A DNA stretch of 64,000 bases, from IMG/VR virus record IMGVR_UViG_3300017917_004998, positions 32,001 to 96,000 of that record; one strand, written 5' to 3'. Positions 1,638-26,917 of the stretch are shown here, piece by piece. This DNA comes from a virus. The notes under the pieces were generated by a model, which was given only the letters and a program-made list of their open reading frames with translations, ran no database searches and was not told the DNA's origin. The number at the start of each line of letters is the position of its first letter. Position 1 is the stretch's first letter. The translations under genes and the position numbers were made by a program.

Positions 1638-2318
1638 ATGGACAAGGCAAGCGCAATCATCACAGTCAGAGACCACTTCTCCTACAACGAAGAGATCTTA
1701 AATGAGATCCTCCAGGACATAGAGTCTTTCAACAGGAAATGGTGTTTCTACGAGTTCGTGACTTCCAAGGTGACACTCATCAGGGAGACCAACTACAAGA
1801 GGGCAAAGATCGGGGAAAAGATCCAGATCGACTCACAGGGATGGAAATACCACGGGGCACAGGTAGTAGTGGAGAAGAAGAGGTTTGGGATGGTAGAGTG
1901 CTACGTTCCAGGAGACGACAAGGTAAGACTCAAGATAAACCCAAGCTCCATCAGGTTCACACCTCAGATGAAGAAGGAGAAGATCAGCTACAAAGTCGGA
2001 GACCTAGTTCTCATCGCTGAAAGCAGGTTCAGACCACGCTACGAAGACGGTGACGTCTTCAGGATCGTCTGGAAGGGAGCGAAGTACGTAAGGGTGGAAC
2101 CAAGAAACCCAAGATGCAAAATCCACACGGACAAAGACCAGGTCGGAGGTCGACCAGGAGACAACATCAGGGAGTACGCAGACTTCGAGGGCAGGAAGGT
2201 CTTCCGAGAGAGTGTCTACTCCATGGATATTCCCAACGACAAACTCCAGCCTGTCAAAGAGTATTACGGGGAGGAAATGGGAGGCCTACTCGGAGACCTA
2301 GACTGCATAGGTCTCTAA
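1638..2318 (+). CDS. hypothetical protein, SH3/KOW-like segments, C-terminal DLxxIGL
   Basis: ATG at 1638 after promoter and CAACAACC leader; ends LLGDLDCIGL. Confidence 0.7.
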   Translation: MDKASAIITVRDHFSYNEEILNEILQDIESFNRKWCFYEFVTSKVTLIRETNYKRAKIGEKIQIDSQGWKYHGAQVVVEKKRFGMVECYVPGDDKVRLKINPSSIRFTPQMKKEKISYKVGDLVLIAESRFRPRYEDGDVFRIVWKGAKYVRVEPRNPRCKIHTDKDQVGGRPGDNIREYADFEGRKVFRESVYSMDIPNDKLQPVKEYYGEEMGGLLGDLDCIGL

Positions 2319-2461
2319 GTACAATCCTCTGCTCTGGTCTTAGCCTTACTCTGTTCACAGTGGTGTACACCTCGACCTAAAAAAAAATCTAAAAAAATTA
2401 GGCCTCGCATTTTTTCTGCTCGAGGCCTAGATCTATATTTACAGTATCAAACAACAACAAC

Positions 2462-2950
2462 ATGATACGCTCAAACGTTAACCCACTCCACCTTCCCCAG
2501 CTTTTCTTCGCTGGACGTGCACTCCTCACTTTCCACAACACCGAGAGAAACACCCACATGACCGTGAAGGTAATCCAAGCAAGGGACAAGGCAGATCGCA
2601 AGATCAAGCTTCCCTACTTCTTCGTCAACATCTCCCTCCTCGGAGACAGCGACCAGGGATTCCGCTACGCCGGCATCATCTACCAGAACACTCTCACCTT
2701 CCGTCCCAACGAAGCAATCCTCCACGACACACAGATGCAGAAAACAATGCTCTTCATCATGGAGGCTATCAAGAACCCTCAGCTCCTCAGGGATCGCAAG
2801 GTGTCTCTGCTCCACGAAGGCAAATGCTGCCGGTGCTCTTTACCGCTTAGCAATCCCCAGTCAATCGACAGAGGGCTAGGAGACGACTGCCACGCCTACG
2901 TCTTCGGCACAGACAATCTCGCACAAAAGAAGAAGCTTGGTCTCTTATAA
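2462..2950 (+). CDS. DUF6011-type zinc-binding protein
   Basis: C-terminal CCRCSLPLSNPQSIDRGLGDDC matches the CxxCxxPLxxPxSIxRGxGxxC pattern. Confidence 0.75.
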   Translation: MIRSNVNPLHLPQLFFAGRALLTFHNTERNTHMTVKVIQARDKADRKIKLPYFFVNISLLGDSDQGFRYAGIIYQNTLTFRPNEAILHDTQMQKTMLFIMEAIKNPQLLRDRKVSLLHEGKCCRCSLPLSNPQSIDRGLGDDCHAYVFGTDNLAQKKKLGLL

Positions 2951-3014
2951 CCAAGCTTCCCATTTTTTCATCACGCACACAGACATTACATTTACAGCAT
3001 CAACAACAAAGAGA

Positions 3015-3959
3015 ATGGCAAGAAAAACATCCACCGGCATACGCAAGCCAATGTCACCAGAGGCTAGGGCAAAGATAGCAGAGGCTGTAAAAAAGTCTGC
3101 GCAGAAGAAGCGCATCGAAGCAGGCCTACCGCCAGACCAGCCACTTCCTGTCGGTCCAGTCAGGCAAAAGCCGATCGACATCATCCAGATGCGCAACCAG
3201 GAATTCGACCAGGACCTGTTCGTGCCAATGTCAACAGGCAGGGAGATAGACTTCCTGTTCTCTCTGGAGGGAGGTATCAACAAGGCAACGAACTACCTCG
3301 TCATCGGAGATCCAGGGGTGGGCAAATCGACAGTCACCCTCGACATCGTCTCAGACCTGGTCAGTCTTGGCTACCAGTGTCTGTTCATCTCAGCAGAGAT
3401 GACCAGGATAGATCTCTTCAAATACGTACAGAGGTTCCCCAAGTTTGGACACGTAGACACTCTCTTCCTTGGTGAGTACTGCGACGACAGCCCAAAGCTC
3501 GTTATCGAGGAGGCTCTGTCAAAAGGTTACGATCTCGTATTAATCGACTCATTCGTCGAGGTACAGGATTCAGTCAAGGAGTCAAACAAGGTGACAAGCT
3601 CATCAGCAGAGAAATGGCTCATCGATCAGATGCTCAAGAACAACCTTGGGGAGAACGACCAGGGGAAAAACACCACCTTCCTCTGTATCCAACAGGTGAC
3701 TAAGGGAGGAGTCTTCTTGGGCTCAAACCGACTCAAGCACAACACCACCGGGATGTTGGAGATCAGGTTCGACGAAGACTTACCAGGTGCTTCCTTCCTG
3801 CACTTCACCAAGAACAGACGTGGACCAACACAGGTTAAGATGTACTTCGAACTTGCCTCAGGCGGACAAGTCATCTACACAGATCCAACCGGACAGACAC
3901 TGGATCCAAAGAATCCGATCGAACAGTTGGCAGCCCTAGTCAACCCATTCGGAAAATAA
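3015..3959 (+). CDS. RadA/Sms-like RecA-fold ATPase with basic N-terminal extension
   Basis: GDPGVGKS Walker A, ISAEM, LVLIDS Walker B, KNRRG (cf. RadA KNRFG); no Zn finger or Lon-like domain. Confidence 0.75.
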   Translation: MARKTSTGIRKPMSPEARAKIAEAVKKSAQKKRIEAGLPPDQPLPVGPVRQKPIDIIQMRNQEFDQDLFVPMSTGREIDFLFSLEGGINKATNYLVIGDPGVGKSTVTLDIVSDLVSLGYQCLFISAEMTRIDLFKYVQRFPKFGHVDTLFLGEYCDDSPKLVIEEALSKGYDLVLIDSFVEVQDSVKESNKVTSSSAEKWLIDQMLKNNLGENDQGKNTTFLCIQQVTKGGVFLGSNRLKHNTTGMLEIRFDEDLPGASFLHFTKNRRGPTQVKMYFELASGGQVIYTDPTGQTLDPKNPIEQLAALVNPFGK

Positions 3960-4006
3960 TCGCATTCCCATTTTTTCAAAACGGAGTCTCACACTACATT
4001 TGTAAT

Positions 4007-4258
4007 ATGGAAAAGGACGTAACGATCACAGAAGGACTCGGACTACCCAACGAGATCTTCGTCCAGACCAGAGACATAGTCCAGGAGCACTGGGGGAATA
4101 GCTCCACAGTCAGCGAAGCCCTGGAAGACATAGCCAGGGGGATACAGGAAGAGGATCTAGGTACCGATGTGCCACTCTCAACCTACGAGAAGAGACTGAT
4201 CCTTGCTGGATACATTACTGGAAGGCACCACCAGGCCCTGAAGGAAATGGGATTTTAA
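4007..4258 (+). CDS. hypothetical protein
   Basis: 83-aa ORF behind TACATTTG at 3995-4002; ends LKEMGF. Confidence 0.7.
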   Translation: MEKDVTITEGLGLPNEIFVQTRDIVQEHWGNSSTVSEALEDIARGIQEEDLGTDVPLSTYEKRLILAGYITGRHHQALKEMGF

Positions 4259-4297
4259 AAACCATCACCAGATCTTCCAACTGCCATTAGGAGATCG

Positions 4298-4325
4298 CCA
4301 AGGCCTAACGAGGCCTTGGTTTTTT
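4298..4325 (+). terminator. intrinsic terminator
   Basis: CCAAGGCCT-AACG-AGGCCTTGG perfect stem followed by T run. Confidence 0.85.
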
Positions 4326-4699
4326 GTGCGGCTAGGCCTCTTAACCCCGGGGCTACCCTAGGCCCCACAAGACCTCCGAGGAGGCCTATAAAACTCCCCG
4401 GGGGGTCTCCTCTTTAATCCCTGCAACTCTAGGGAAATCCCCACCACTTCCTCCCTATAACAACGCATCCCACAGGGGACTTTTGCGGGGGTTTTTGTAC
4501 ATTGGCCCCCTTAGTCCCCCTGGAGGGGGGTTAAAACAGGGGTCCTGCATATAGGTGAGGGTCCCCTATAAAGGGCCCTATGAATACTAGGGGCCGGATT
4601 CGCTTAGGGGACCAGATTAGGGGACCCTCAGAGGTCCAGATTCGGGGGGCCCTCGCGTATGGGGGAATCTGATGGGGGAGGCCCGGCGCTTGCGTTTTT
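4326..4699. other. GC-rich non-coding element (candidate origin or terminus region)
   Basis: No credible ORF; many C4-C5 runs in the left half and G4-G6 runs in the right half; short palindromes AGGCCT, CCCCGGGG, GGGCCC. Confidence 0.55.
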
Positions 4700-4833
4700 G
4701 GGCTGAGTTTTATTAAGAGGTTAGTTGGGCTGAGTTTTATTAAGTGATATCCTATGGGCTGAGTTTTATTAAGAGGTTAGTTGGGCTGGGTTTTATTAAG
4801 AGATTTATTAAGAGCTTTATTAAGAGGTTAGTT
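4700..4833 (+). repeat. iteron-like direct repeats
   Basis: GGGCTG(A/G)GTTTTATTAAG at 4700, 4727, 4756, 4783; TTTATTAAG also at 4804, 4816; AGGTTAGTT three times. Confidence 0.85.
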
Positions 4834-4887
4834 GTGTTGTGCAATCCTATCGAGAGAACACATCTCTACACCAGTCATATAATCATC

Positions 4888-5208
4888 ATGGAAAATAGAG
4901 AGTACAGCGTCAATGAATTCAGAAGGAGAACCAAGGAGGAGAAGGTGATCGATTCTTTTGCTGCCATTATAGACAAGATGTTTGAGATCGGTGGTCACAC
5001 AACCAGGTACAAAGATGTTGTTGGCAGAAAAGATGCATGGTACCAGGAATGGGAGATGACACTGGAGCAGAATGAGATGTGGAAGGCTTGGGGCATCGAT
5101 TTTCTGAAGCGGGAATTGAAGATGAATCAGAGACAGGCATCTATTGAAATGGGAATGATTAGCATGAACTGGGGTTTGACAATTTCTGATTGGAAAGCAG
5201 ATGTTTAG
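4888..5208 (+). CDS. hypothetical protein, paralog of 10206-10454
   Basis: ATG at 4888; shares KMFEI.G....Y.D.V.RKD.W with 10206. Confidence 0.75.
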   Translation: MENREYSVNEFRRRTKEEKVIDSFAAIIDKMFEIGGHTTRYKDVVGRKDAWYQEWEMTLEQNEMWKAWGIDFLKRELKMNQRQASIEMGMISMNWGLTISDWKADV

Positions 5209-5590
5209 GATTTTCCTGTTCTGCATGTTTGCTCTCTGTGGAGTAGCAAGAGCACAGTCCTGTAACTTCGATCCAGTTGGCATGACCGAGCACATTTCTC
5301 ATGGCGATCTTGAAAGGATGTGTGCGGACACTGTCATGTGGATCGTAGAGAAGCCTGGGGATCGTTGGGTGTCGTATGATGTTAGTTCCCGTAGAGCGGG
5401 AAAGAGATTTCGCAGAATGAGCGGTTTGGAGCAGCTGACTCTGGTTGAGTACTACCACACAGACTGCTTCTTTGTCGTTGGTAGGGAATGCTCAGTAGGC
5501 AGATGTCTGCATAGATACAGACTTGTTGTTGATGAGAGGTGTCGCATTGTCTCTATAGAGGTGATACTGTGCCATGACTATGATATATAG
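5201..5590 (+). CDS. hypothetical protein with probable signal peptide
   Basis: Hydrophobic N-terminus ending ARAQ; overlaps preceding stop. Confidence 0.6.
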   Translation: MFRIFLFCMFALCGVARAQSCNFDPVGMTEHISHGDLERMCADTVMWIVEKPGDRWVSYDVSSRRAGKRFRRMSGLEQLTLVEYYHTDCFFVVGRECSVGRCLHRYRLVVDERCRIVSIEVILCHDYDI

Positions 5591-5593
5591 TGC

Positions 5594-6040
5594 ATGTCCA
5601 TTCTTAGATTCTGCGATTACGTTTTAGAGGATGGTCTCATTGGAGATCTTTCTTCTTTGGGATTTGATAGCTATTCTGGATGGATGGTGATGATCTATTC
5701 TGAGTATACCAAAGGGATTGAGATGAAGGCTGGAATTTATGCAGTGGTTGCCAAAAGCGTATTTGATGCATCAGAGATGATTATCGAGAATCTCGGGATC
5801 TTAGACCATTCGGATTCTTTGATTGAACCATTGAGTGGTGACACGTTTGAGGAATGTCTGGAGGAGCCGGCGAAGAGGCACATGAGCAGATTCAAGATAG
5901 CTAGGGTTTATTCAGGTCTTGTCCCTATTAAAGGAGAGGACTATTGTCTTGAGATTGATTGGACAAACCCAAAGCTTGCTATCAAAGATCTCAAAAGCAT
6001 TTTTAGCAACGTGGATGCAGTGCTGGACAGAGGTTTCTAA
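5594..6040 (+). CDS. hypothetical protein with DLxxLGF motif
   Basis: LIGDLSSLGF near N-terminus; ends LDRGF. Confidence 0.7.
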   Translation: MSILRFCDYVLEDGLIGDLSSLGFDSYSGWMVMIYSEYTKGIEMKAGIYAVVAKSVFDASEMIIENLGILDHSDSLIEPLSGDTFEECLEEPAKRHMSRFKIARVYSGLVPIKGEDYCLEIDWTNPKLAIKDLKSIFSNVDAVLDRGF

Positions 6041-6091
6041 TCTTTCGCTTTAACGTTTTTTCTTGCCGTATGCAGTGCTTATATTTGCACT

Positions 6092-6499
6092 ATGGAATCT
6101 TTGATTGACGATCTCGAAGCTATTGGATTCGGTTCTGAGTTCAGCTGCGGAAAGGAGTGGGGTTATGGTGCTGAATTTGGCACCATCCCAGACGGCAGAA
6201 GTGATATGCACTTTTCCGCTAAAGTGGTGGAGAGACTGCTGTTATTGGATGCGCTAGAGGGCAAAATGTGTTTAGGTGGGTCTCTGGTCTTTAGATATTA
6301 TGTTGTGCTGGACGAAAGGCAGGTGAGCTTCTACCTTGTTCCCATTAATGACGATTTGTGCATCTTGATCTGCTCTTATGCTGTTGCCTTTGGCCCGGAT
6401 GCGTTAAGAATGAGGGTTTCAGACCCAGAAGAAGTTAGGAATCTGCATCTGCACCTCGGTCAGCTGGTGAAATGCACATTAAGCAACGTATGGATCTGA
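6092..6499 (+). CDS. hypothetical protein, paralog of 6499-6930
   Basis: TATATTTG at 6080-6087; starts MESLIDDLEAIGF. Confidence 0.7.
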   Translation: MESLIDDLEAIGFGSEFSCGKEWGYGAEFGTIPDGRSDMHFSAKVVERLLLLDALEGKMCLGGSLVFRYYVVLDERQVSFYLVPINDDLCILICSYAVAFGPDALRMRVSDPEEVRNLHLHLGQLVKCTLSNVWI

Positions 6500-6930
6500 T
6501 GGACGAATCTTTGATTGACGATCTTGCATCTCTTGGGCTAAAGTTCGAGTTCAGACGTGGTGTAGACTGGGGCTACGGCAGGAGTCTGGACAAAGAACCA
6601 GATGGCAAACACTACATGTTCTTTACACCAGAGGCAGTTGAGAGACTTAGTGCGATTGGAGCTCTTGCGGGAAAGCAAGGATCTCTTGCTCATAACTTCG
6701 TGTACAATAGTGTCTGGCAGAACATGTATCGCGTGAGCTTCTATTTGCACAGGACTTCTGCAGTGTCCCTTAGTGATCCTCGCTCACGAAAGGATGTAAT
6801 GTATTACCTGGCTGGATCCTGCGGTGACTCTGGATTCGGTGTCGGGTATCTGCAATATCGCTTTCGTCCCAGTACGATCAAGAAGTTTCAGAAGGAGATA
6901 GAAGAATTGGTCTTGTCTCTGAGAGGCTGA
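6499..6930 (+). CDS. hypothetical protein, paralog of 6092-6499
   Basis: TGATG stop/start overlap; ESLIDDL...WGYG...PDG...VERL shared. Confidence 0.7.
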   Translation: MDESLIDDLASLGLKFEFRRGVDWGYGRSLDKEPDGKHYMFFTPEAVERLSAIGALAGKQGSLAHNFVYNSVWQNMYRVSFYLHRTSAVSLSDPRSRKDVMYYLAGSCGDSGFGVGYLQYRFRPSTIKKFQKEIEELVLSLRG

Positions 6931-7004
6931 TCAGATCCGAAAATCTGGTGCCTGGGCCCGTTGAAAATTGGGCGAAAAAATGCCCTTTGTCTGATATATA
7001 ATGG

Positions 7005-7499
7005 ATGAAACATTTGTATGAATATGAAGACTCTGACGTCAGAGATCTGATGCAGAATCTGAAGGACATTGGCATCAATGATCTTCAGTCAGTCTTCATC
7101 CAAACGATTTCCAAGGGCGAGGAATCTTTCGATTGCTGGATCTTGGTTGGCAAAGACGAAGAGCAGATGGTCGAGATGCTGTTGGATGACGACATGGTCA
7201 GTCCAATCCCAGTGTCGTTGAGATCCAGATTTTCTGGCACAAAAACACTCAGTGATCTGTTTTTGTCCTCAAGCAACCTCAGAGTGTCGGACAGCGACCT
7301 GATCCACTTCACATTCTTTAGAGATCTGGAGCTTAGACCTTCAGTAAAAGAACCAATGCTTGTCTGCTTTCACGGCAACGAATTCTACAGGAGCATCAAT
7401 CTTCTTGAGACATATTACACAAACATCCAGGATGTTATGTACGAAAAATTGAGGGCAGACTGGGGCAACAATCTCTACGTTCAAAAATGGGGAAAGTGA
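7005..7499 (+). CDS. putative internal head protein
   Basis: GATATATA at 6993-7000; MKHLYEYE N-terminus then DLMQNLKDIGI. Confidence 0.65.
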   Translation: MKHLYEYEDSDVRDLMQNLKDIGINDLQSVFIQTISKGEESFDCWILVGKDEEQMVEMLLDDDMVSPIPVSLRSRFSGTKTLSDLFLSSSNLRVSDSDLIHFTFFRDLELRPSVKEPMLVCFHGNEFYRSINLLETYYTNIQDVMYEKLRADWGNNLYVQKWGK

Positions 7500-7897
7500 T
7501 GAAGCACTTAAGGGGATATCCGGTTTTCATTAACGAGAAAGGAGATGATAAAGAACTGATGGATCTCCTGAAGGATATGCAGGGACTGGGTCTGACGCTA
7601 ACTGACGAGGAGAAAGACATGCTTGATTTTGTTAATCAATTTGGTGGTGGCATGTCTGCTGAAGACTATGCAGAGACCCTATACGATTACTTCACCAATC
7701 CAGAAGAGTATGAGATAGACAAGGAGGGGGACTACTACGACATGATCTGGTACCTCTTCGAGAACTCGGTAGAGGATCACGCAAGGTGTCCTTCTGCGAT
7801 GGTAGCATATCACAGATGGGATACATCTTCAATAGAGCAGGAACCTTTATACAAGCTCTACATCAAAATGTCGAATTACTACAATAAACGTAAATAA
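7499..7897 (+). CDS. putative internal head protein
   Basis: TGATG overlap; MKHLRGYPVFINE then DMQGLGL. Confidence 0.65.
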   Translation: MKHLRGYPVFINEKGDDKELMDLLKDMQGLGLTLTDEEKDMLDFVNQFGGGMSAEDYAETLYDYFTNPEEYEIDKEGDYYDMIWYLFENSVEDHARCPSAMVAYHRWDTSSIEQEPLYKLYIKMSNYYNKRK

Positions 7898-7901
7898 AAA
7901 A

Positions 7902-8357
7902 ATGAAGCACCTCAAACTCTACGAAGATTATTCAGATGATGAGATCAAAGATCTCATGGGTGATCTCCATAGTGTTGGTTACAGCCCACTGGTGTTTAAA
8001 CTCTACTTTCCAGAAGATTCGTCCGGACAGGGACATCAGAAGAAGGAAGAGGAATATGCAGAAAATTGGAAGTCTGAGATAGATCCCAAGAGACACATTG
8101 TAAAAGTGGAGGGAGCACTAGCAGATGAAACAGATCACGACTGGGTGGATGTGACTCTAAACAATGGTGACTTCATCGAGTACTCCTACCAGTTTGATAG
8201 AAGATGGGGAGACTCCGAATCCAAGTTTAAAATTAACGGAAAAGAATATCCAGAATATGCTGGAGAAATTCATGACGGGATCGTGGACTCCGGAAAAGGC
8301 TATCTAGAACAGATGCTGGCCTGCTACGACAAAGAGATCGGAAAGTTCTACCATTAA
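7902..8357 (+). CDS. putative internal head protein
   Basis: MKHLKLYEDY then DLMGDLHSVGY; acidic. Confidence 0.65.
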   Translation: MKHLKLYEDYSDDEIKDLMGDLHSVGYSPLVFKLYFPEDSSGQGHQKKEEEYAENWKSEIDPKRHIVKVEGALADETDHDWVDVTLNNGDFIEYSYQFDRRWGDSESKFKINGKEYPEYAGEIHDGIVDSGKGYLEQMLACYDKEIGKFYH

Positions 8358-8465
8358 GACAGTATATTCTAGCATATCAATAGGGTGTAAATCAGAAGCC
8401 TTTGTACAAGCTCTATCTAAAAATGTCCGACTACTACAATAAACTGAGAAAGTAATATATAGATT

Positions 8466-9294: not shown

Positions 9295-9726
9295 ATGAGT
9301 GTACAACCAGACCATGGACAAGAAGATCTCGATAGTCTTTTATCTGATTTAAAATCTATTGGGATGCCAATTCGTGAAAAAATGGAATTTGGCGTGGTGA
9401 AGTTTTCTGTATATAAAAAAATAATTTCGGGGATAGCCTTTGAATTTGAAGCGGTAGATAACATCGAATCAATTCTGGATGCAGTAAACACTAAAGAATT
9501 CATAGATGCAGTCTGTCCGGTTATTCACGGAGGAATTGACTTTAGCAAGAATAGAAAATGGGACCGTTTGGATCAGCTTTTCGATGCTGTTGTCACGGGT
9601 CAAAATGCATATTATATTTTGGTGTACTTAAAAAGCGAATCCAGAGTTATTCATTCAAGAGAAGTTGGGATGGGATACATCAACTTAGGAGGCATTGAAA
9701 ATTTGGGTTTAATTGATTTAATATGA
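9295..9726 (+). CDS. hypothetical protein with DLxxIG motif
   Basis: TACATTTG at 9278-9285; LLSDLKSIGM. Confidence 0.7.
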   Translation: MSVQPDHGQEDLDSLLSDLKSIGMPIREKMEFGVVKFSVYKKIISGIAFEFEAVDNIESILDAVNTKEFIDAVCPVIHGGIDFSKNRKWDRLDQLFDAVVTGQNAYYILVYLKSESRVIHSREVGMGYINLGGIENLGLIDLI

Positions 9727-10139
9727 TAGATATGATGTCACATCAGTACTATCACATGAACACTCTCCAGGACGATTTGGTCAAATTGGGATTCCCTGAC
9801 ATGGATGCTGTTCCGATGATTTTCGAAATGACGTCAGTGTATGAAGATGGCTACACCGATGTTATTGTCAATTTCGAATTTTCTTCAGCGATCAAAGAGG
9901 ATAAGATTATAGAGGAGCTAAACAGTAACAACAGATTTAAGAATACTCTTTCCTCTATTGCTCCATCTGGATATGATTGGCCTTTTGTTAACGATTTCCA
10001 AGACATAGAAAAACTTTTTTGGAAAATTAAGACCTATATCCTAGAACAGAAATACTCATCTCTCCCCATTGTTGAGATAGAGATAAGAACCAAGGAAGGA
10101 CACGTATTTGCAAAGTCTTCCTTTCCCAGGAAATCATAA
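9723..10139 (+). CDS. hypothetical protein with DLxxLGF motif
   Basis: Overlaps previous stop; LQDDLVKLGF. Confidence 0.7.
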   Translation: MIDMMSHQYYHMNTLQDDLVKLGFPDMDAVPMIFEMTSVYEDGYTDVIVNFEFSSAIKEDKIIEELNSNNRFKNTLSSIAPSGYDWPFVNDFQDIEKLFWKIKTYILEQKYSSLPIVEIEIRTKEGHVFAKSSFPRKS

Positions 10140-10454: not shown

Positions 10455-10495
10455 GACATTTTTTTGCGACGTAATTACGCAATAAATTTGTGTCA

Positions 10496-10752: not shown

Positions 10753-11463
10753 ATGAAAAGGATCAAACCATTCGTTTTATTTCTAAGAGAACAGAATGAC
10801 ACCGGATACGATGAATATTCATTCGAAGAACTTTCAGATGAAGCGAAAGAGAAAGCTTTAGATGCTATGAGAGATATTAACACAGATCGATCTGGATGGG
10901 ACGAGCCAATTACTACGGACTTCGAGAACGAGATGGGAGAATTTGGATTGGACAACGTTAAGATTAGCTATAGCGGATTTTATTCTCAAGGAGACGGAGC
11001 CTCTTTCACAGGTAACGTCATCGACGCTAAAACTTTCATGGCTAAAGCACTAGATATGAAGGATACAGAATGGATCGATATGAGCAACGACGAAAATCCA
11101 GAAGACGAGGGAAGCAGACTGAGAGCAGATCTCCTTGATATTGGTTTTGATACCAGAGAGAAGTTAACTCCAGATAATTTCTATATTGAGATAGTAAGAA
11201 CTTCCAATAGACATTCTCACGAGAATACGATAGAGGGCAAAGTTTCCATAGAAGATATTCCAGAATCTATAGAAGACGAAATACCGTCACAAGCTATTGA
11301 GAATGAAATACAAGGAAAAGTAACTAATTGGGCTAGAGCCAAATCAAAAGAGCTTTATCGAAATTTAGAAAGATACTATGATGATTTGACATCGGATGAG
11401 GAGGTAAAGGGAACTATAATAGCAAACGAATACAAGTTTGACGAGGACGGCACTCTTATTTAA
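10753..11463 (+). CDS. putative internal head protein, acidic
   Basis: GATATATA at 10726-10733; MKRIKPFVLFLRE; internal LRADLLDIGF. Confidence 0.7.
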   Translation: MKRIKPFVLFLREQNDTGYDEYSFEELSDEAKEKALDAMRDINTDRSGWDEPITTDFENEMGEFGLDNVKISYSGFYSQGDGASFTGNVIDAKTFMAKALDMKDTEWIDMSNDENPEDEGSRLRADLLDIGFDTREKLTPDNFYIEIVRTSNRHSHENTIEGKVSIEDIPESIEDEIPSQAIENEIQGKVTNWARAKSKELYRNLERYYDDLTSDEEVKGTIIANEYKFDEDGTLI

Positions 11464-14136: not shown

Positions 14137-14625
14137 ATGAAGCACATTAAATTATTCGAATCCGACCCCGACGATATTTTAGGGGATTTGGAAAAAATCG
14201 GGTTTGAACCTTTTATTGGGTTTATTTGGTGCGCAGGAACAAGTACTAAACAATTGGGTTTTTTAGTTGTCGGCAAAGACGAAGAGGATTGTGTGAACCA
14301 AGTTAAATCACATTTAACTTATTATCTTAACACAATGGGACCTGGCTTTTTTTCTTCAGGTGGTATTGGTGGTACCACGAGGAAGTCGGCGAATACTATG
14401 GAGGAATATCTGACACAGCTTTATGAAGTTGGAAAAATCCGTGACGCCGGACATTACAGATTCAAAGCAAGAAAAAACGAGGCCTTGGTTAAAATATTTT
14501 GGGATGACTACATGATGAACCCGAAGTATGTTTACGACCAAGCCCAAGAATATTTCACGGATGCAGACATTGAGTTCGATAAGGAATATCCACAGGAAGA
14601 AATTTATCTCAAGAAATATAAATAA
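14137..14625 (+). CDS. putative internal head protein
   Basis: GATATATA at 14124-14131; MKHIKLFES then ILGDLEKIGF. Confidence 0.7.
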   Translation: MKHIKLFESDPDDILGDLEKIGFEPFIGFIWCAGTSTKQLGFLVVGKDEEDCVNQVKSHLTYYLNTMGPGFFSSGGIGGTTRKSANTMEEYLTQLYEVGKIRDAGHYRFKARKNEALVKIFWDDYMMNPKYVYDQAQEYFTDADIEFDKEYPQEEIYLKKYK

Positions 14626-15406: not shown

Positions 15407-15973
15407 ATGAAAAGAATAAAGCTTTTCGAAGAACATTCGGAAAAAGAAACACCAAGGTTTAACCATAAAGAAATTACAGAGGTAATAAATTCTGCTGACC
15501 TTGACAAATTCTTTTCAATTGATGCAGAAAAGGTTAAACTACAAGCCTGGGCAGACACATTAAAAAGCGGTTATGTCCCTTCTGATCCAGGATACATAAA
15601 AACACAATTTGTCTGCTATATTATCGATAGCGGGATCAAATGTGATTTTAAAGGATTTAAGGAAAAAATAAAAGAGTCTTTTCTCAAATCCAAAAAAGGA
15701 AGTCAGAAAGATCTGGATCTTTTGAATGACCTAGGAGAACTTGGTTTTACTAAAAAGTATTATTCACTCCAAACTATCTTAAACTCTATAGATAACGAAA
15801 AAGATTTGTCAGATATGGTTTCTACAACGGACAAGGATTATATTTTGGATACTATGATAGACGATCCAAAAAGTAATCCAGTGGAGGTTTGGACGAAATT
15901 TAAAGAATATGTAGGTGAAATAAAATTCGAAAAAGAAGATTTAATCAAATACATCACTCGTAAAATTTCTTAA
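15407..15973 (+). CDS. putative internal head protein
   Basis: GATATATA at 15392-15399; MKRIKLFEE; LLNDLGELGF. Confidence 0.7.
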   Translation: MKRIKLFEEHSEKETPRFNHKEITEVINSADLDKFFSIDAEKVKLQAWADTLKSGYVPSDPGYIKTQFVCYIIDSGIKCDFKGFKEKIKESFLKSKKGSQKDLDLLNDLGELGFTKKYYSLQTILNSIDNEKDLSDMVSTTDKDYILDTMIDDPKSNPVEVWTKFKEYVGEIKFEKEDLIKYITRKIS

Positions 15974-18527: not shown

Positions 18528-19658
18528 ATGAAGATCATCACAGATTTTAAAATTCATGCTCTTACAGAAAGCATTAACGAGGCTTTAGATAAAAGCGAAA
18601 TTAAAAGACTCAAATCGCAACTGAAAGTTTATTGCGAAGAGGTTGGATCTGATTTTGATGAAGTCTGCAAGCTACTTAAGTTGCAGTCTGGGGGTCTTTC
18701 AAAATTAAACAAAGATCAAATTGAATGGCTGAATAAAATAGTTGGAAGCAACGGCTCATGGGATCTTAATGACGAAACTGGAAAAATCGACATAGAAATG
18801 CAAAATACTATGTATTTGAAGAAAGAAAGTCTTCCTTTAGGCTCTATTCCTTTTGGTATTCAATTTGGTAGATTTTCCGGAAATCTCTATGCATCAAATG
18901 CTCAATTGGAAAGTCTCGAGGGGTTCCCAGAAGAAGTAACTGGAAGCTTTGTTGTTACAAACAACAAATTCACTTCTTTAAAAGGATGTCCTAAGGTAAT
19001 TAAAGGTGAATTTAACTGCGGTTACAATAATTTGACAACTCTTAAAGGAGGACCAGTCGAAGTTAGATCATCATATGTTTGCAACAATAACATCTATCTA
19101 ACAAATCTGGAGGGAGCTCCAGAATATGTTGGTGGTGATTTCAATGCTAATTCTTGCAACCTGAAAACTTTAGAAGGATCACCGAAAGATGTTGAAGGCA
19201 ATTTTACCTGTGAAGACAACGATCTTAAGACGATGGAGGGAGCTCCAAAAAGAATCGGAGGTTATACTATAGATTGCACTAAAAACCAGCTTTATACTTT
19301 AGAGGGACTTCCATTAGACCATAGGGGTCTGGTAAAATGTGCAAAGAATTTATTCCCAGAGGAAGTACTTAAGACTGTTTATATGAACGCAAAGAAGTAT
19401 GAAAGCTGGGTAGGAGCTTATCTCGTTCTATTAACAACTAAGAAGTTCCAAAGAATGAGCAAGGAGCAAAGAGATCCTATTAGAAAAGCACTTTCTGGTG
19501 ATGTACTAAAAACTAAAAGCTTACAGTTGTCTAAGATTTGGAAGGATCCAATTATGGAAGACCCTGCAGTAAAGAGGATGATTAAAAGAGCAGACCTTGG
19601 GCAGGAAACAGTCCAAGACGTAGAACTTGGATCTGATCTAAGTGATATTGGATTTTAA
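18528..19658 (+). CDS. LRR-like repeat protein
   Basis: ~22-aa repeats NxLxSLxGxPxxVxGxFxC; N-terminal ...INE; ends DLSDIGF. Confidence 0.8.
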   Translation: MKIITDFKIHALTESINEALDKSEIKRLKSQLKVYCEEVGSDFDEVCKLLKLQSGGLSKLNKDQIEWLNKIVGSNGSWDLNDETGKIDIEMQNTMYLKKESLPLGSIPFGIQFGRFSGNLYASNAQLESLEGFPEEVTGSFVVTNNKFTSLKGCPKVIKGEFNCGYNNLTTLKGGPVEVRSSYVCNNNIYLTNLEGAPEYVGGDFNANSCNLKTLEGSPKDVEGNFTCEDNDLKTMEGAPKRIGGYTIDCTKNQLYTLEGLPLDHRGLVKCAKNLFPEEVLKTVYMNAKKYESWVGAYLVLLTTKKFQRMSKEQRDPIRKALSGDVLKTKSLQLSKIWKDPIMEDPAVKRMIKRADLGQETVQDVELGSDLSDIGF

Positions 19659-19664
19659 TTACAA

Positions 19665-19691: not shown

Positions 19692-19728
19692 GTTCGTTTA
19701 ATTTTGTTATGTTTGTAGGAATTTAATT

Positions 19729-19959: not shown

Positions 19960-19975
19960 AAAAAATTAAAATTCT

Positions 19976-20311
19976 GTGAAGCACCTGTCAATTTTTGAAA
20001 GTTATGAGCCATTAGATAAAAAAGATCTGGACCTTTTGAAGAGGATACTCGACAACAGTGAAAGTTGGAGAAAGATACTAAAAGAGGTAAGTGAAAAACC
20101 AAATAGCGATAAATTTGATAGGTTAATTCAACATTTCAGGGTTCTTAAATTCATTCAAAACAAGCCAAAAGAAATGTCTTCCCTTATTGCACCTGTTCTA
20201 AAAGACAATCCAATGCTTATGAAATGGATATCTGCTAATGCTGACAATTTACCCGCAGATTTCCGGGAATCTGTTGGTTTATACAGCGACTTAAAAAATC
20301 TTGGATTTTAA
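19976..20311 (+). CDS. putative internal head protein
   Basis: GTG start; GATATATA at 19951-19958; KHLSIFESY; ends DLKNLGF. Confidence 0.7.
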   Translation: MKHLSIFESYEPLDKKDLDLLKRILDNSESWRKILKEVSEKPNSDKFDRLIQHFRVLKFIQNKPKEMSSLIAPVLKDNPMLMKWISANADNLPADFRESVGLYSDLKNLGF

Positions 20312-20312
20312 A

Positions 20313-21485
20313 ATGAGACATCTTAAAAAATTTGGTGAGCTATTCGAAGGCTATGAAGAATCCTCTGAAATTTTTTCTCCAGAATTCAGAAAAGAACTTC
20401 GTTCAGAATTACCTAATCTGAAAAAAGAAATTAAGTATTACCTAAACAGGGGACTAAATGGGTATTTAGATCTAGTAGAGGTAGACGACAAAACTCATCC
20501 TGCTTTATTTCTTGAAGCGTCAAAAACACCATTGATTTTTAATACGTTTTATGTTGATAACTCAGGAAACCTTAGGATTGTAAAAAATCCTAAGCTTACA
20601 GATGATGCACAGTTAACAAATCTGTTAACAAAAGATTTAAATTCTATAAATGACTTTTTATCGTCAATCGGCAAAAATCCATTACCCAATAGTTTTTTTA
20701 TAGATTCATTTAAAAAAGAGTATTACAACGGAATAAGAAATCAAAACGGTGCAGAGTACATCTCGAAAATAATTTCTTACATATTTGACGACTATAAAGA
20801 TTTTATTAAAAAAACTAAGTCTACTGGTGAGCAAATAACAAAAGAAGCAGTAACTAATCTTCCAGCTTTTAAAGAAATAGAAGGGATCGGTGGAAGTGAT
20901 CAAACATCGGAAAGAATCTGGAGTAATGGAAATTTAAAGATAGTCCACCCTATTTTGCTTAATACAAATTGGAGAGGCGAAAGTTTACAGGATTATATTA
21001 CAGTTTATTCAGGAGGTCCAATCAGAATTACCAGCGATGGAAGACCAGCAATTATGACTGGAGCCCCTGGTGATATTATAGCAAACATCCAAGGATGGAA
21101 CGATAAACTAGATTACGTTTTAAAATATTTGCTTAGAAAGATTGCAAAAGAATATTTTAAGATCACAAGCACAAACGAATTAAAGAAATTGTCTTCTGGT
21201 ACAGTTGGAGATTTTTTTAATTCTATAATTAAAGATTATTCAAGCGATGAATTCTTTAAATGGCTTTCAAGTCAAACTGACAAGGTTCAGGATTTTGTTC
21301 TTAACAGCGGGATTGATCTTAAGGATTACATAGAAAAAGATCCGTCTAAGGCTGCTATCCAAATGAAGAAGGTTTACAGTAATCCTTCACTTAAAAAGTT
21401 ATTGAGTGGGCTCAATCCAGAAACTGCTAAAGTGTTCAACCAAAATCTAGGTCTAGTTGGAAATCTAGGAGATTTAGGTTTCTAA
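20313..21485 (+). CDS. putative internal head protein
   Basis: MRHLKKFGELFE; ends NLGDLGF. Confidence 0.7.
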   Translation: MRHLKKFGELFEGYEESSEIFSPEFRKELRSELPNLKKEIKYYLNRGLNGYLDLVEVDDKTHPALFLEASKTPLIFNTFYVDNSGNLRIVKNPKLTDDAQLTNLLTKDLNSINDFLSSIGKNPLPNSFFIDSFKKEYYNGIRNQNGAEYISKIISYIFDDYKDFIKKTKSTGEQITKEAVTNLPAFKEIEGIGGSDQTSERIWSNGNLKIVHPILLNTNWRGESLQDYITVYSGGPIRITSDGRPAIMTGAPGDIIANIQGWNDKLDYVLKYLLRKIAKEYFKITSTNELKKLSSGTVGDFFNSIIKDYSSDEFFKWLSSQTDKVQDFVLNSGIDLKDYIEKDPSKAAIQMKKVYSNPSLKKLLSGLNPETAKVFNQNLGLVGNLGDLGF

Positions 21486-21489
21486 AATA

Positions 21490-22443: not shown

Positions 22444-22445
22444 AA

Positions 22446-23366
22446 TTATTCGATAATAATATCTCCGTTGGGTAATACCCGTTTAATAATCCCTTCCTTT
22501 CCAGCGTCTGGTCCCTCGGTTATTCTTACCTTCTTACCTATTAAGCTAGATTCACCTTCAGAGTCTCCCTCGCCTTCTCCTTGCTTATCTCCAGGTCCAC
22601 CCTTTCCTTCACCAGGCTTGTCGCCAGGCTTGTCACCAGACTTTCCTTGCCCTTCTTCAGATCCACTCCCTAGCTCTTCCTCTTCATCTTCATCTTGGAA
22701 TCTTCTCTGCGCAACGTCTTCTTCGTAATCTGGCTGAGGTAGATTATCACTTGCGTCCTCGACTTCACCGAGATTGTTTTTATCCTTCATTTTTTCGAGC
22801 TGATCTTGCATACTCTGATCTTTCATGATATCGTCGTAGATATCTTCTGCTCTCATACCTGAATACTTTTCTTCGAACAAACCCATTCTGCTGCCATCAT
22901 CTTGAACCGGCCAATCAAATATTCGAGAAGAAACTTCGGCATTTAAAATAGGATTGATTGCGTAATCAGCAGCATAATTCCACAGTAGAGGATTTCTATT
23001 ACCTCTTCTCGACATGTGATCTCCTACGCAATGTAATACCTCGTGACAAAGTACGAATCTGATTGCAGCATCAGATTGTTTTAAAACAAAGTCAGGATGG
23101 TAAACAATATTGAATCCATTTGTACACATTGTCGGAGGATCGATTTTAGAACTCCCGTATATGTTTAGGTTGGATAAAAGCTGTGCAAAAAATCCTCTGT
23201 TAATAGTAATCCAAAGAATTGCTCTTTGAACTTTAATTCTTGCTTGGATTGACTTGTCCCTCATTGAATCCTCAAAAATAAAAGAATCCCTCTCAACTAA
23301 AAAATCTTTAAAGTTTTTAGCAGAGATTTTATTTAGTTGAGAGAAATCTATAAACTTCTTTTTCAA
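22446..23366 (-). CDS. putative metallopeptidase (DUF2201 N-terminal type) with C-terminal KOW motif
   Basis: TMCTNG...FVLCHEVLHC (HExxH), WNYAADYAIN; ends GKKVRITEGPDAGKEGIIKRV; TTG start. Confidence 0.8.
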   Translation of the reverse strand: MKKKFIDFSQLNKISAKNFKDFLVERDSFIFEDSMRDKSIQARIKVQRAILWITINRGFFAQLLSNLNIYGSSKIDPPTMCTNGFNIVYHPDFVLKQSDAAIRFVLCHEVLHCVGDHMSRRGNRNPLLWNYAADYAINPILNAEVSSRIFDWPVQDDGSRMGLFEEKYSGMRAEDIYDDIMKDQSMQDQLEKMKDKNNLGEVEDASDNLPQPDYEEDVAQRRFQDEDEEEELGSGSEEGQGKSGDKPGDKPGEGKGGPGDKQGEGEGDSEGESSLIGKKVRITEGPDAGKEGIIKRVLPNGDIIIE

Positions 23367-23377
23367 GGTCTGTGGTA

Positions 23378-24943
23378 TTAAATTAAACTTTTAGATCTAG
23401 CTCCTGATTGAATCATTTTAGCTGCTTCAATCTTTAACTTAGAATCATCGGTGTCTTTATTTCTTAAAACTTCTTCAGTTACTGCAAACTCAGGGAATTC
23501 GTCAGTAATTCTCTTGTAAATCCAGCTAAGTACTTCTAGCTCTTCGTACTTGTTGAAGTATTCCATAATGCTGAAAAGATCTTTAACTGAAACCTTACCA
23601 TCCTCAGATAGCTCTTCAGCTTTTCTTAACACCATCTCATATAGACCGTACATTACACTAGTGAAGTCACCAGACTTGGCAATGGTTTTAGCTTTCTTAG
23701 GATCTTTAACCATTTCTTCCAAATCTGAATCGGTAAACTTCTTAAGTACACCAAGGTAAGCAACCAATTTTCCAGTAGCATCCGGGCCAAGCTGATCTGC
23801 ATAAATGTTACTGATAACATCCAAAGGAAGCTGTCTCCAAGATTTTACGTCTCTGTCTTCCATCTCATCCTTAAGGATTGCTGCAGCGTCTGTCCAAGAA
23901 CGAGGTGTTGGGAATTTCAATGTTCCCTTCTCGTCATCCAAATAGTGGAATAACTCTTGGTTCTGAGAAACGAAGTTAACAAATTCTGGCTCGAATTTAT
24001 TGCTCTTCTTAGCCCACTCTACCCAATCTTCAACTTTAGGCTCAAGATTCACGATTGTAAAACGGTCTGCTAAAGCGAAATCGAATTCAGCAACATCCGC
24101 TTCTGAAGGTCTGTTACCTGCTGCTACTAAGATCCATTTATCAGGAAGTACGTACTCACCGAGTCTTCCCATTTGAACGAATTGCATTACAGAGTTCAAA
24201 ACTGTCTTGTTTGCTCTGTTCATTTCGTCCATGAATATAATTCCTCCCTTACCGTCGTTTCCATTACTTCTAGGCAACAGAGAAGGTGGATTGGATCTAG
24301 TTGCACCTTGACCTAAAAATCCCTTTTCTCCGGTTTCTTTAAATTTAGCAACATCTGGCTCTTGAATATCTACTACTTTTGGTATACCCAAGAAATCTTC
24401 CGGTGCCATAAACTGAAGATCCAAGTTGATCATAGGAACTCCTAATGAATCTGCTGCTTGCCCAACAATCTGTGTTTTTCCAATACCTGGTGCACCGAAA
24501 ACAAAAATTGGTTTTGCTCTACCACCTCTAACTTTACTTCTATAAAGTTTTTCAATCATCTCTTTCAATTCTTGAGCATCTACGTTTCTAACTGTTTGAT
24601 CCTCACCAGTATATGCCAAAGGAACTTTTGCTTCCTCTAAATCTGATTCGCTGATTGCTGCAGATTCGTATATCTCAACTGGATTTTCTTTTGAGAAAGG
24701 TGTACCTGAGTAAAGTGCATTAATTTGAGAAACAATGCTACCTGCAGAAGGATCGAAATAAGATCCGACAGGAGTTCCTTTTTTAGATCCAGAAGGAATC
24801 ATTTTTACTAAGCCGTCTTTGATACCCTGTACCAAATCTTTAGCCCATGATGCTAATTGTGAAAACTTGTCACTGATGTAACCCTCATTAGCGTTGTACT
24901 CATTAACTACAAAACTTTTGAAGTCGAAAACTTTTTTGCCCAT
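23378..24943 (-). CDS. MoxR/dynein-related AAA+ ATPase
   Basis: GAPGIGKT, IIFMDEMNR, LVAAGNR, ALADRF, PTPRSW. Confidence 0.88.
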   Translation of the reverse strand: MGKKVFDFKSFVVNEYNANEGYISDKFSQLASWAKDLVQGIKDGLVKMIPSGSKKGTPVGSYFDPSAGSIVSQINALYSGTPFSKENPVEIYESAAISESDLEEAKVPLAYTGEDQTVRNVDAQELKEMIEKLYRSKVRGGRAKPIFVFGAPGIGKTQIVGQAADSLGVPMINLDLQFMAPEDFLGIPKVVDIQEPDVAKFKETGEKGFLGQGATRSNPPSLLPRSNGNDGKGGIIFMDEMNRANKTVLNSVMQFVQMGRLGEYVLPDKWILVAAGNRPSEADVAEFDFALADRFTIVNLEPKVEDWVEWAKKSNKFEPEFVNFVSQNQELFHYLDDEKGTLKFPTPRSWTDAAAILKDEMEDRDVKSWRQLPLDVISNIYADQLGPDATGKLVAYLGVLKKFTDSDLEEMVKDPKKAKTIAKSGDFTSVMYGLYEMVLRKAEELSEDGKVSVKDLFSIMEYFNKYEELEVLSWIYKRITDEFPEFAVTEEVLRNKDTDDSKLKIEAAKMIQSGARSKSLI

Positions 24944-25070
24944 TTTTGGTTTTTTTATTTTTTTACTCCTTATATATCACACAGAAATATGAAGTTGTAA
25001 AGATTAACGATCAAATCTCTTTTCTTATCCAGCAATTGAAATATATAGCAGATAAAAATTAAGAAAAACC

Positions 25071-25793
25071 TTGCCACTACTAAAATATTCCGAGTTTGTT
25101 GATAAAGAAATCAACGAGAGTAACATAAACGAACAGGGTATGGCTCCAGTTTGGTGGAAATTTCAAAACTGGTTTAAAAACCTATGGAATAGGAAAAAAC
25201 CTAAAGGTACCATTGCCCCAGCACCTTCATATCTCACAGGTAAGCATTTGCTTTACATTCCACACCAGCAGGGTCCAGTTGGAGCAGCTGCTATTGTAAA
25301 TGCTGCTATGGGAAAAGGTACACTCGAACAAAGGACAAGAAGAAATCTACTCGGAAACGTTCCAACTAATTCAAAGTACTACAAAATCATCAAAGATCCG
25401 CTAAAATCTGATAAAGATGCTGCAATTGCTTTTTTAACCTACTATTCAGACAACTGGAATAAACTAGAGAAACAAGCAATGACATTGATAAACAGCCCTA
25501 AATATTCCAAAGCTAAAAAAGCTATTGATGCTATAAAGGATCCAGAACTTCCTAAAGAATTCTTAACAACGGTTGCTTTTAAAGAATCTAGTCTTAATCC
25601 AAACCCTCCAACGAATAAAACCTACAAAGGATTATTCCAGATTGGACCTAGCGCATGGGCTGAATTGAAAAGGGTCTTACCTTCCAAATATAAGGGATCT
25701 GCAATACCTTTAGACCCAAAAAAGAATGCTCAAGCTGGACACGATTATCTTAAGCTAACTTATGACAGATTCCAGAAAAAAATAGGATCATGA
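25071..25793 (+). CDS. lytic transglycosylase (SLT-like) with capsid-targeting-like N-terminus
   Basis: AFKESSLNP, KGLFQI, NAQAG..YL; TTG start; LLKYSEFVDKEINE. Confidence 0.7.
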   Translation: MPLLKYSEFVDKEINESNINEQGMAPVWWKFQNWFKNLWNRKKPKGTIAPAPSYLTGKHLLYIPHQQGPVGAAAIVNAAMGKGTLEQRTRRNLLGNVPTNSKYYKIIKDPLKSDKDAAIAFLTYYSDNWNKLEKQAMTLINSPKYSKAKKAIDAIKDPELPKEFLTTVAFKESSLNPNPPTNKTYKGLFQIGPSAWAELKRVLPSKYKGSAIPLDPKKNAQAGHDYLKLTYDRFQKKIGS

Positions 25794-26917
25794 TAAGGAT
25801 CAAATCATACAATTCTTTTCTTAACGAATCCAGAGTAGATCTAGATCCTAAGCAGAAAGGCTTCCTGGACAAAGTGTGTAAAGGTGTTAGTAAATGGAAG
25901 CAGAACGAAAAAGGTCTTGTTGATGTCGACGGAAGTTTCAAGGCTGACGGAATGGATTTAAAGGATCTATACGGAATAAAATTCGGAACGATTAAAGGTG
26001 ATTTTAACATTTCCGATAACGATCTTGTAAATCTTGATGGCTGTCCTAAAGAAGTACATGGTTATTTTAGCTGCTCTGCTAATTTTCTAAATAGCTTAGA
26101 AGGTGGGCCGGATAGTGTCAAAGGAGACTATATCTGTACAAACAATAGCTTATTCAACCTAGATTTTATTGCTAAAGATTTTAATGGTCTATATGCATCA
26201 GGAAACGATCTAGAGCATCTAGGTGATTTACCTCAGAATATTAATGGAGATTTCTTCATTAATGATAATGCACTTCTTAAATCACTAGACGGATCTCCAA
26301 AAATTGTGGGTGGGGATTACGATTGCTCAAATTGCAAATTAGAAAGTCTTGGAGGAGGACCGAAAGAAGTTGGTGGAAGTTTTAATTGCGAAAATAACAA
26401 GCTTGATTCACTTGCAGGTGGTCCAGAATACATTGGTGGTCATTTTACATTAAGCTATAATAAAGTTAACAGCTTAGAAGGTATTGCAAGAGGAGCAAAT
26501 ACGATAGACATCGTAAAAAACCCAATATCGTCGTTACAAGGAATAGATTTTAAGTCGGTTAATAAAATTTACCATTCACACAATTTATTGCCAAGAGAGG
26601 TGCTTAATTTTCAACTGGAATACCTAAAAGAAAGAGGAAATCTTAATGGATGGCTTAAAGAATACATAGAAAAAGATCCTAAAAAATTTGCACACTTATT
26701 TAATTTGCCGGATTCGGATCAAAATAGAAAAAAATTAGATTCATTAAATTTAATTGATTTCTCTTTTGAGCATCCGAACGTTCTGCTTAAAATAATAACA
26801 CACGTAGGACCTAATAGCTTACTCTATAATTATTTTAAAGATAACGGTAATAAATTTTCAAAAGAATTCCAGGAAGCTTCCGGTCTTTATTCAGATCTGA
26901 AAGATCTTGGATTTTAA
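25790..26917 (+). CDS. LRR-like repeat protein
   Basis: Repeats NxLxSLxGxPxxVGGxFxC; MIRIKSYNSFLNE; ends DLKDLGF. Confidence 0.8.
   Translation: MIRIKSYNSFLNESRVDLDPKQKGFLDKVCKGVSKWKQNEKGLVDVDGSFKADGMDLKDLYGIKFGTIKGDFNISDNDLVNLDGCPKEVHGYFSCSANFLNSLEGGPDSVKGDYICTNNSLFNLDFIAKDFNGLYASGNDLEHLGDLPQNINGDFFINDNALLKSLDGSPKIVGGDYDCSNCKLESLGGGPKEVGGSFNCENNKLDSLAGGPEYIGGHFTLSYNKVNSLEGIARGANTIDIVKNPISSLQGIDFKSVNKIYHSHNLLPREVLNFQLEYLKERGNLNGWLKEYIEKDPKKFAHLFNLPDSDQNRKKLDSLNLIDFSFEHPNVLLKIITHVGPNSLLYNYFKDNGNKFSKEFQEASGLYSDLKDLGF

Follow-up and report, generated by a model that had tools for sequence, protein, structure and literature searches.

Encapsulin cargo-loading peptides dock unrelated cargo on the inner face of an HK97-fold shell. 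They are short, stand behind flexible linkers at one or the other terminus, depending on the system, contain hydrophobic anchors and a glycine, have a G-S-L/L-x-I-G-S-L-type consensus and are bound in an extended, not helical, form. A second kind of docking peptide is represented by acidic/hydrophobic tails that bind a hub, such as the C-terminal tip of SSB, clamp-binding and PIP-type motifs and the gp45-binding tails of T4, which plug into one pocket on the hub, PIP-type motifs being flexible in their position. The described system nearest to the element reported here is the capsid targeting sequence (CTS) of phage T4, found on the internal proteins IPI-III and Alt (PMC3012670). The T4 CTS occurs only at the N terminus; it comprises about 10 residues, has a protease site at its end and is taken off. 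The element in question is a short peptide motif with the core DLxx(L/I)G(F/L/Y), which about two dozen accessory proteins of a phage carry at their start, at their end or in a loop. It was noticed in a 64,000-nt stretch of viral DNA (the window), bases 32001-96000 of the 123,063-bp linear IMG/VR viral contig IMGVR_UViG_3300017917_004998 (38% G+C); positions are those of the window unless given as genome coordinates, which refer to the whole contig.

Like the T4 CTS, the motif is a short portable peptide on diverse, fast-evolving accessory or anti-defence proteins of a T4-type phage, and many of the tagged proteins also carry a CTS-like leader. Unlike the CTS, it has a different sequence, stands at the C terminus, behind the leader or in loops, and occurs on leaderless proteins too; it does not keep to the extreme N terminus (first ~10 residues) and has no conserved Glu at a fixed position, as a prohead-protease site (L/I-x-E) would have. 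With encapsulin peptides it has in common that it is a short terminal peptide behind a flexible linker, but its consensus differs, binding to the capsid would be hypothetical, and the Pfam and PHROG matches of the neighbouring genes included no encapsulin shell-like gene. The resemblance to hub-binding tails lies in many proteins having one short acidic-hydrophobic peptide, often at the extreme C terminus and with an aromatic end; however, the consensus D-D-D-I-P-F or Q-L-x-L-F is unmatched, the bearers are not replication proteins, and fewer than half of the copies are C-terminal. In UBA-, SAP- and HeH-type folds further helices follow the Gly-aromatic loop, whereas the chain ends at the aromatic residue in 11 of our proteins, and Pfam gave no UBA, SAP or HeH match above its cut-off. 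The initial annotation of the window, made from the sequence alone, did not recognise the motif as a described signal, and we likewise found no paper describing it, the related literature covering T4 and SPN3US; the helix motif looks like an undescribed docking label among viral protein-sorting and docking peptides.

The motif is enriched and conserved as a peptide

The core pattern [DNE][LM]xx[LIVM]G[FLYIMV] was counted in the 198 open reading frames (ORFs; 37,050 aa) of the whole contig. It matched 31 times, compared with 3.5 +/- 1.9 (maximum 15) in 2000 within-protein shuffles, so that its frequency exceeds the background; a strict pattern was observed 27 times versus 1.4 times in the shuffles, and reversed or permuted patterns gave 0-4 matches. 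Four of the 31 matches are chance-like (the ATPase 2937-3959 and the ORFs at genome 65978, 96382 and 100528), and all credible sites lie within genome 5-59 kb, which is the accessory-gene region. The motif is C-terminal in 11 proteins and internal in at least four, and lies 7-30 residues in from the N terminus in the rest. On the part of the contig outside the window there are six tandem leucine-rich repeat (LRR) genes ending in the motif, three internal copies and three weaker N-terminal copies. As a sequence signal the motif is thus genuine and above chance. All 16 peptides quoted in the initial annotation were present in frame in a six-frame scan, although the positions attached to them were gene starts and not motif positions, and its list, correct in what it contained, had overlooked the copy at 7574 in gene 7487-7897.

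The conserved unit is longer than first described, L-h-(G/S)-D-L-x-x-(I/L)-G-(F/Y), forming an acidic, amphipathic stretch of 10-12 residues. Numbered backwards from the last residue, the aligned sites have Leu at -9 in 22 of 23 cases, a position absent from the search pattern, followed by a hydrophobic residue at -8, Gly/Ser at -7, Asp/Asn at -6, Leu at -5, Ile/Leu/Val at -2, Gly at -1 and Phe/Tyr/Leu at 0. Over the 16-mer the net charge averages -3.2, and the flanks are hydrophilic or acidic linkers. Leu -5, Gly -1 and Phe 0, the features of a glycine (Schellman-type) helix C-cap, are near-invariant, a match that describes the shape of the motif and not its function. In all 11 C-terminal cases the chain ends exactly after the aromatic residue. 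At the DNA level all six Leu codons are used within the motif, and the Gly, Ile and Asp codons vary too. Conservation therefore acts on the peptide and not on a DNA repeat, and a DNA-level repeat or recombination cassette is ruled out by the freely varying codons.

The sites in the window are as follows (core position in brackets; the module is the C-terminal domain treated in the next section).

2286..2315 (core 2295), + strand: C-terminal motif of gene 1593/1638-2318; TAA directly after the core; only the ~17-aa tail is common, no module
3354..3374, + strand: probable chance match in the P-loop ATPase 2937-3959; excluded from the tag count
4235..4255, + strand: weak C-terminal look-alike ..LKEMGF of gene 4007-4258; no acidic residue and no Leu -9; doubtful member
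5636..5665 (core 5645), + strand: N-terminal motif of gene 5594-6040, in the family of 7005 and 14101
6101..6130 (core 6110), + strand: leaderless gene 6092-6499, which has the motif at residues 4-13 and is preceded by a TAnnTTTG box at 12 nt
6511..6540 (core 6520), + strand: N-terminal motif of gene 6472-6930, a paralog of 6092
7047..7076 (core 7056), + strand: motif following the MKHL.. leader of gene 7005-7499
7565..7594 (core 7574), + strand: post-leader motif, D-M variant, of gene 7487-7897; kept in the L032 homolog
7953..7982 (core 7962), + strand: post-leader motif of gene 7902-8357
9337..9366 (core 9346), + strand: N-terminal motif of leaderless gene 9295-9726; core unchanged in two orthologs
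9765..9794 (core 9774), + strand: N-terminal motif of gene 9723-10139, a distant paralog of 9295, in register
11119..11148 (core 11128), + strand: internal motif of gene 10753-11463 (phrog_5162), within an acidic insertion
14176..14205 (core 14185), + strand: motif following the MKHIK.. leader of gene 14137-14625; kept in 10 orthologs and degenerate in a distant one
15719..15748 (core 15728), + strand: internal motif (residue 108 of 188) of leader-bearing gene 15407-15973
19386..19655 (core 19635, then TAA), + strand: C-terminal ~85-aa module with motif, gene 18528-19658, LRR body
20039..20308 (core 20288, then TAA), + strand: C-terminal module with motif, gene 19976-20311, nearly just leader plus module
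21213..21482 (core 21462, then TAA), + strand: C-terminal module with motif, gene 20301/20313-21485, non-LRR body
26645..26914 (core 26894, then TAA), + strand: C-terminal module with motif, gene 25790-26917, LRR body

Independence of the bearers and a shared C-terminal domain

The bearers had been called otherwise unrelated, which was an overstatement, as four of the five C-terminal cases in the window (18528, 19976, 20301 and 25790) have a homologous module and the N-terminal cases include paralog groups. A hidden Markov model was built from the tandem array of six LRR genes (minus strand, genome 7566-11925) and run on the window genes. In 25790-26917 and 18528-19658 its match covered the LRR part as well as the C-terminal part; in 20301-21485 it was confined to the last ~90 residues, and 19976-20311 matched weakly. 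The helical C-terminal module of ~85 aa ending in the motif is common to ten contig proteins (alignment A5). Among the N-terminal cases, which form about six groups in all, 5594/7005/14101, 6092/6472 and 9295/9723 are paralogous, and the internal copies at genome 5370/6274/6928 make up a further group. About 12 sequence-unrelated groups are left, a number that is still far above chance (binomial P about 2e-5).

In a profile-profile comparison of four families, namely the leader-bearing N-terminal class (A4), the leaderless class (A7), the C-terminal module (A5) and phrog_5162 (A6), only 13-18 residues of the motif aligned and nothing else. A search of the module profile against 1.84 billion representatives returned 147 metagenomic clusters at 50% identity, nearly all with the module at the extreme C terminus; an exact end in the motif was seen in 103 of them with the strict pattern and in 132 with a loose one, and the bodies are LRR in 93 and other bodies or fragments in 54. 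One sub-lineage of the module ends in ..ELGLF, and some others carry a different tail. In the metagenomic protein P0235 the module and motif are joined to a body with the subtilase-like active-site signature G-H-G-T-H-V-A-G; the module is therefore attached to an enzyme too. It had no match in 50,697 GenBank phage records, and in the module-bearing proteins tested it was without a Pfam or PHROG match. By its sequence, the ~85-aa module looks like an undescribed domain family.

Conservation in register and portability

In homologs the motif keeps its position. Among the 120 best LRR homologs, nearly all start MK(H/Y)LKTYxLFE and 90 end exactly in the motif, or about 110 if variants with Gly for Asp are allowed. 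For gene 14137-14625, leader and motif are kept in 10 of 11 orthologs, and one distant ortholog has a degenerate copy. The leaderless gene 9295-9726 has two orthologs, 58% identical overall, of which the better match keeps the whole motif stretch and the other differs only upstream of the core. Further non-LRR proteins with an N-terminal or internal motif were found on related metagenomic contigs.

The internal copy in gene 10753-11463 belongs to phrog_5162, a widespread phage family with 232 GenBank phage records. When homologs from Cronobacter, Escherichia and Acinetobacter phages were aligned with members from three related megaphage contigs, the motif and its acidic linker were located inside an insertion of ~25-30 residues that no member other than this phage and two metagenomic relatives from its lineage possesses (A1, A6); it is missing in the homologs from six motif-less phages. 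A PDB sequence search with a phrog_5162 member returned nothing useful.

The initial annotation had described a portable amphipathic-helix tag; the portability is borne out by the varying codons and by the alignment of the motif alone, and the helix is a structure prediction. Two observations concern the same families. All megaphage members of phrog_5162 (A6) have an N-terminal leader-like extension, which is absent in the Cronobacter, Escherichia and Acinetobacter phage homologs compared, and the 9295 family has a conserved hydrophobic tail, ..(N/D)LGLI(D/N)LI (9700-9723, orthologs P0276 and P0277), which may be a second terminal element.

Related phages and alternative tails

CheckV estimated the contig to be ~52% complete. 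No near relative was found among GenBank phages; by its tail sheath and ClpC-like ATPase the contig groups with huge T4-related phages, its nearest company being the LR7565xx records, the Lak phages and Flavobacterium phage MaF61. A Bacteroidota host is probable, given signal peptides of the Bacteroidota type and the TAnnTTTG promoter boxes. We found no head genes on the contig, because the fragment is only ~52% complete; G003, a complete relative of 348 kb, encodes a T4-type prohead protease and gp23.

The motif is narrowly distributed. A 16-position profile, made from the site alignment A3, found 24 sites in this contig and a single one in G001; G002, LR756501, LR756502, LR745206 and a Vibrio phage had no site, and across four related phage records (2.2 Mb in total) the number of sites was zero. 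IMG/VR scans for further motif-bearing genomes yielded G001 only. In this 154-kb genome seven leader-bearing proteins, with LRR and non-LRR bodies, end in DLx(D/E)LGF, and no N-terminal copies were found.

Elsewhere the tail is exchanged for another. In G002, G003 and several metagenomic contigs, members of the LRR family end in ..Y.NIKGYL on a different C-terminal region, and in LR756501 about a dozen small proteins have another common tail, ..KRTKLIDKMLNE. No locus mixed its tail types (0 of 74). Different tails following the same logic in sister lineages suggest, on sequence grounds, a general and unpublished principle of megaphage biology. LRR tails of the NIKGYL type occur in L010, L012, L013 and L081-L094. 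The small proteins of LR756501 (735 kb), ~12 in number at L009:33000-40200 and ending in ..(K/R)RTKL(I/M)D(K/R)MLNE, represent an analogous phenomenon.

Structure models

The AlphaFold2 (AF2) model of one LRR member, computed from a 30-sequence alignment, had a mean predicted local distance difference test score (pLDDT) of 88; it is made up of an LRR solenoid and, behind this, a five-helix domain, each with pLDDT >90. LRR proteins are solenoids of tandem LxxLxLxxN-type repeats, ~21-22 residues each, and the LRR assignment agrees with Pfam LRR_4/LRRNT matches in homologs and with the repeated strand pattern of the model. Leader residues 1-14 had pLDDT <50, and the tail helix, residues 212-223, ends just before Gly-Phe, the pLDDT dropping from ~75 (residues 211-220) to 44 (the last six residues). 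In such a model, a peptide that binds another molecule would be expected to look like this, a conserved tail of low confidence on a body of high confidence. Fold searches with the LRR model gave weak matches, nearly all to LRR proteins, and no match to the C-terminal module; the ESM Atlas gave no usable match. For the N-terminal class the model was poor overall (mean pLDDT 50); it, too, draws the motif as a helix, which is followed by a strand.

Leader peptide and promoters

It had been stated that the motif often follows the capsid-targeting-like leader directly. The association is real, the leader pattern being present in 13 of 27 motif proteins (odds ratio 13.5, inflated by paralogs), and it is partial, at least seven motif proteins being leaderless. 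The sequence GATATATA occurs 30 times on the contig (e.g. 5576-5583, 10720-10727 and 18496-18503), with a further example in L003, upstream of 11499. The tail sheath gene, a probable structural gene (848 aa, head-closure-like PHROG match) and most leader-bearing operons are preceded by this element at a distance of 11-35 nt. By analogy with the TATAAATA of T4, it is likely a late promoter. A TAnnTTTG box lies 12-17 nt upstream of three leaderless motif genes, 6092, 9295 and genome 6274, which are also downstream of late-type promoters on the same strand. Boxes of this kind stand at the same distance upstream of other small genes as well, consistent with a host-type promoter.

A candidate docking handle and its alternatives

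Taken together, the enrichment, the selection at the protein level, the conservation in register, the portability and the predicted helix are best read as a portable docking handle; that this handle has a role in the virion we regard as somewhat short of an even chance. The acidic amphipathic helix would present Leu -9, Leu -5 and Ile -2 on one face and end in the Gly-aromatic cap, and would be displayed on hydrophilic linkers at the N terminus, at the exact C terminus or in a loop of unrelated accessory proteins, the bearers belonging to one megaphage lineage with a probable Bacteroidota host. All copies would be read by one common receptor, which would differ between lineages and whose gene may sit on the missing half of the genome. 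In view of the leader association, the promoters of late type and the effector-like nature of the bodies, we would place the receptor in the prohead interior, most likely in the scaffold core or at the inner capsid surface. The handle could then assist in loading or retaining proteins that are carried in the head into the next cell, acting on many bearers beside the T4-like, capsid-targeting-type leader. A wider version appears to us distinctly more doubtful. In it, megaphages of this clade would use interchangeable, lineage-specific address labels; the one here, a position-independent acidic helix of 12 residues that can stand at either end or in a loop, would direct dozens of unrelated accessory proteins, whether packaged or freshly synthesised, to a single receptor.

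If one receptor does read the helix, a set of deliverable or co-localised accessory proteins would be recognisable from sequence alone, including LRR effectors and probable anti-defence proteins, which would offer a handle for mining uncultured megaphages. Foreign proteins could then also be loaded by means of the motif, a small tag that can be transplanted, in the way in which the T4 leader is already used. Should it indeed be an address label, phages would encode a protein-sorting code beyond the T4 leader, with a dedicated C-terminal carrier module of ~85 aa.

Several points weigh against the docking handle. Leaderless motif proteins exist, three of them with a host-type TAnnTTTG box close upstream, so that late cargo with a leader is not strictly the only kind to bear the handle. 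With a pLDDT of 50, the N-terminal-class model is too poor to establish that the motif is exposed there, and gene conversion among tandem paralogs could also give uniform tails per locus. No receptor was found on the 52%-complete fragment. In T4 the leader alone suffices for packaging (PMC3012670), and a second signal is therefore not required by precedent.

In one alternative the motif would address a host or early phage protein inside the infected cell, so that packaged and early-made effectors reach the same target, much as T4 aims the packaged Alt and the early ModA/ModB at RNA polymerase. The TAnnTTTG boxes of the leaderless genes, the conservation of the motif in the leaderless 9295 family, the effector-like tagged bodies with their LRR solenoids and a Tad3-like anti-Thoeris gene in the same block all point in this direction, and short acidic-hydrophobic hub-binding tails are a known theme. 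We nevertheless consider it unlikely, since the motif is absent in relatives presumably infecting similar hosts, ~25 proteins would compete for one site, and the leaderless genes also lie downstream of same-strand late-type promoters, so that they may not be expressed early only.

The motif might instead have no common reader at all and be a generic Gly-capped helix, inherited by paralogy and spread by recombination, that stabilises each fold. The raw count is indeed largely due to paralogy (ten proteins with one C-terminal module and several small paralog groups), the sequence obeys the Gly-cap rule (hydrophobic C3, Gly C', hydrophobic C'') with the AF2 helix ending at the Gly, a family with ..LKEIGFDEPCF keeps its copy in a phage without other tags, and an out-of-frame remnant of a copy indicates local rearrangement. 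This would leave unexplained the near-constancy of Asp -6, Leu -9 and Leu -5 among families with non-aligning bodies, the exact end of the chain after the aromatic residue in 11 of 11 C-terminal cases, the insertion into the phrog_5162 loop and the lack of any profile match in 2.2 Mb of relatives, and we judge it quite improbable.

Slightly less probable again is a binding of tag to tag or tag to leader, by which tagged proteins would be joined head to tail or into an inner-body-like mass. The basic, aromatic leader and the acidic, hydrophobic tail are complementary in character, both ends are of low confidence in the monomer model, and the two elements are adjacent in the N-terminal class and at opposite ends in the LRR class; however, a T4-like leader would be expected to be cleaved off, and tagged proteins without a leader exist.

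The least probable of the alternatives, an AAA+ handle or degron by which the ClpC-like double-ring ATPase (31074-33209) or the MoxR/DUF2201 trio (21490-24943) would remodel or unfold the tagged proteins, cut them or limit their lifetime, draws on the terminal position of the motif at either end, which is typical of degrons, and on the location of the trio inside the cluster of C-terminal-module genes and its presence in G001 with its seven tagged proteins, but is opposed by DUF2201_N homologs in four motif-less phage genomes, by ClpC-like homologs in two of these genomes (61% identity), by a distance of 30 kb between trio and tagged genes in G001 and by the absence of any sign of cleavage.

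Neighbouring genes

The initial annotation had named the phage ClpC and the AAA+/VWA proteins as candidate partners, a proposal left unsupported, as homologs of the ClpC-like ATPase and of the DUF2201_N member of the MoxR/VWA-like trio occur in motif-less genomes and MoxR/VWA showed no specific co-occurrence with the motif. As specific readers we accordingly rejected the MoxR/DUF2201 trio, whose neighbourhood is not kept in G001, and the ClpC-like ATPase, the motif-less records in question being LR756502 and LR745206. The KaiC/RecA-like ATPase 2937-3959 was rejected as a co-occurring gene on account of its presence in the motif-less G003. The MoxR ATPase was not found in G003, a complete genome.

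The trio (21490-24943, minus strand) consists of a MoxR-type AAA+ ATPase and two adjoining genes that together make up a DUF2201 protein, the metallopeptidase-like N-domain and KOW being on one of them and the VWA-like domain on the other; in other phages the DUF2201 protein is a single gene (phrog_1314). At 8466-9221 (plus strand) a 251-aa protein matches Pfam Tad3, a type I Thoeris inhibitor (6e-20), has a leader-like N terminus and is preceded by GATATATA at 11 nt; going by its sequence, its product is possibly a packaged anti-defence protein.

Outside the window, at L001:6031-6090 (plus strand, genome coordinates), the out-of-frame motif remnant overlaps the 3' end of gene 5370-6080 and is nearly identical to the copy in the relative L019; it looks, from this similarity, like the footprint of a rearrangement between paralogs. 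Window positions 1-8000, which contain a tRNA-like array and several of the small tagged genes, have a G+C content of 45-46%, compared with 35-38% in the remaining window.

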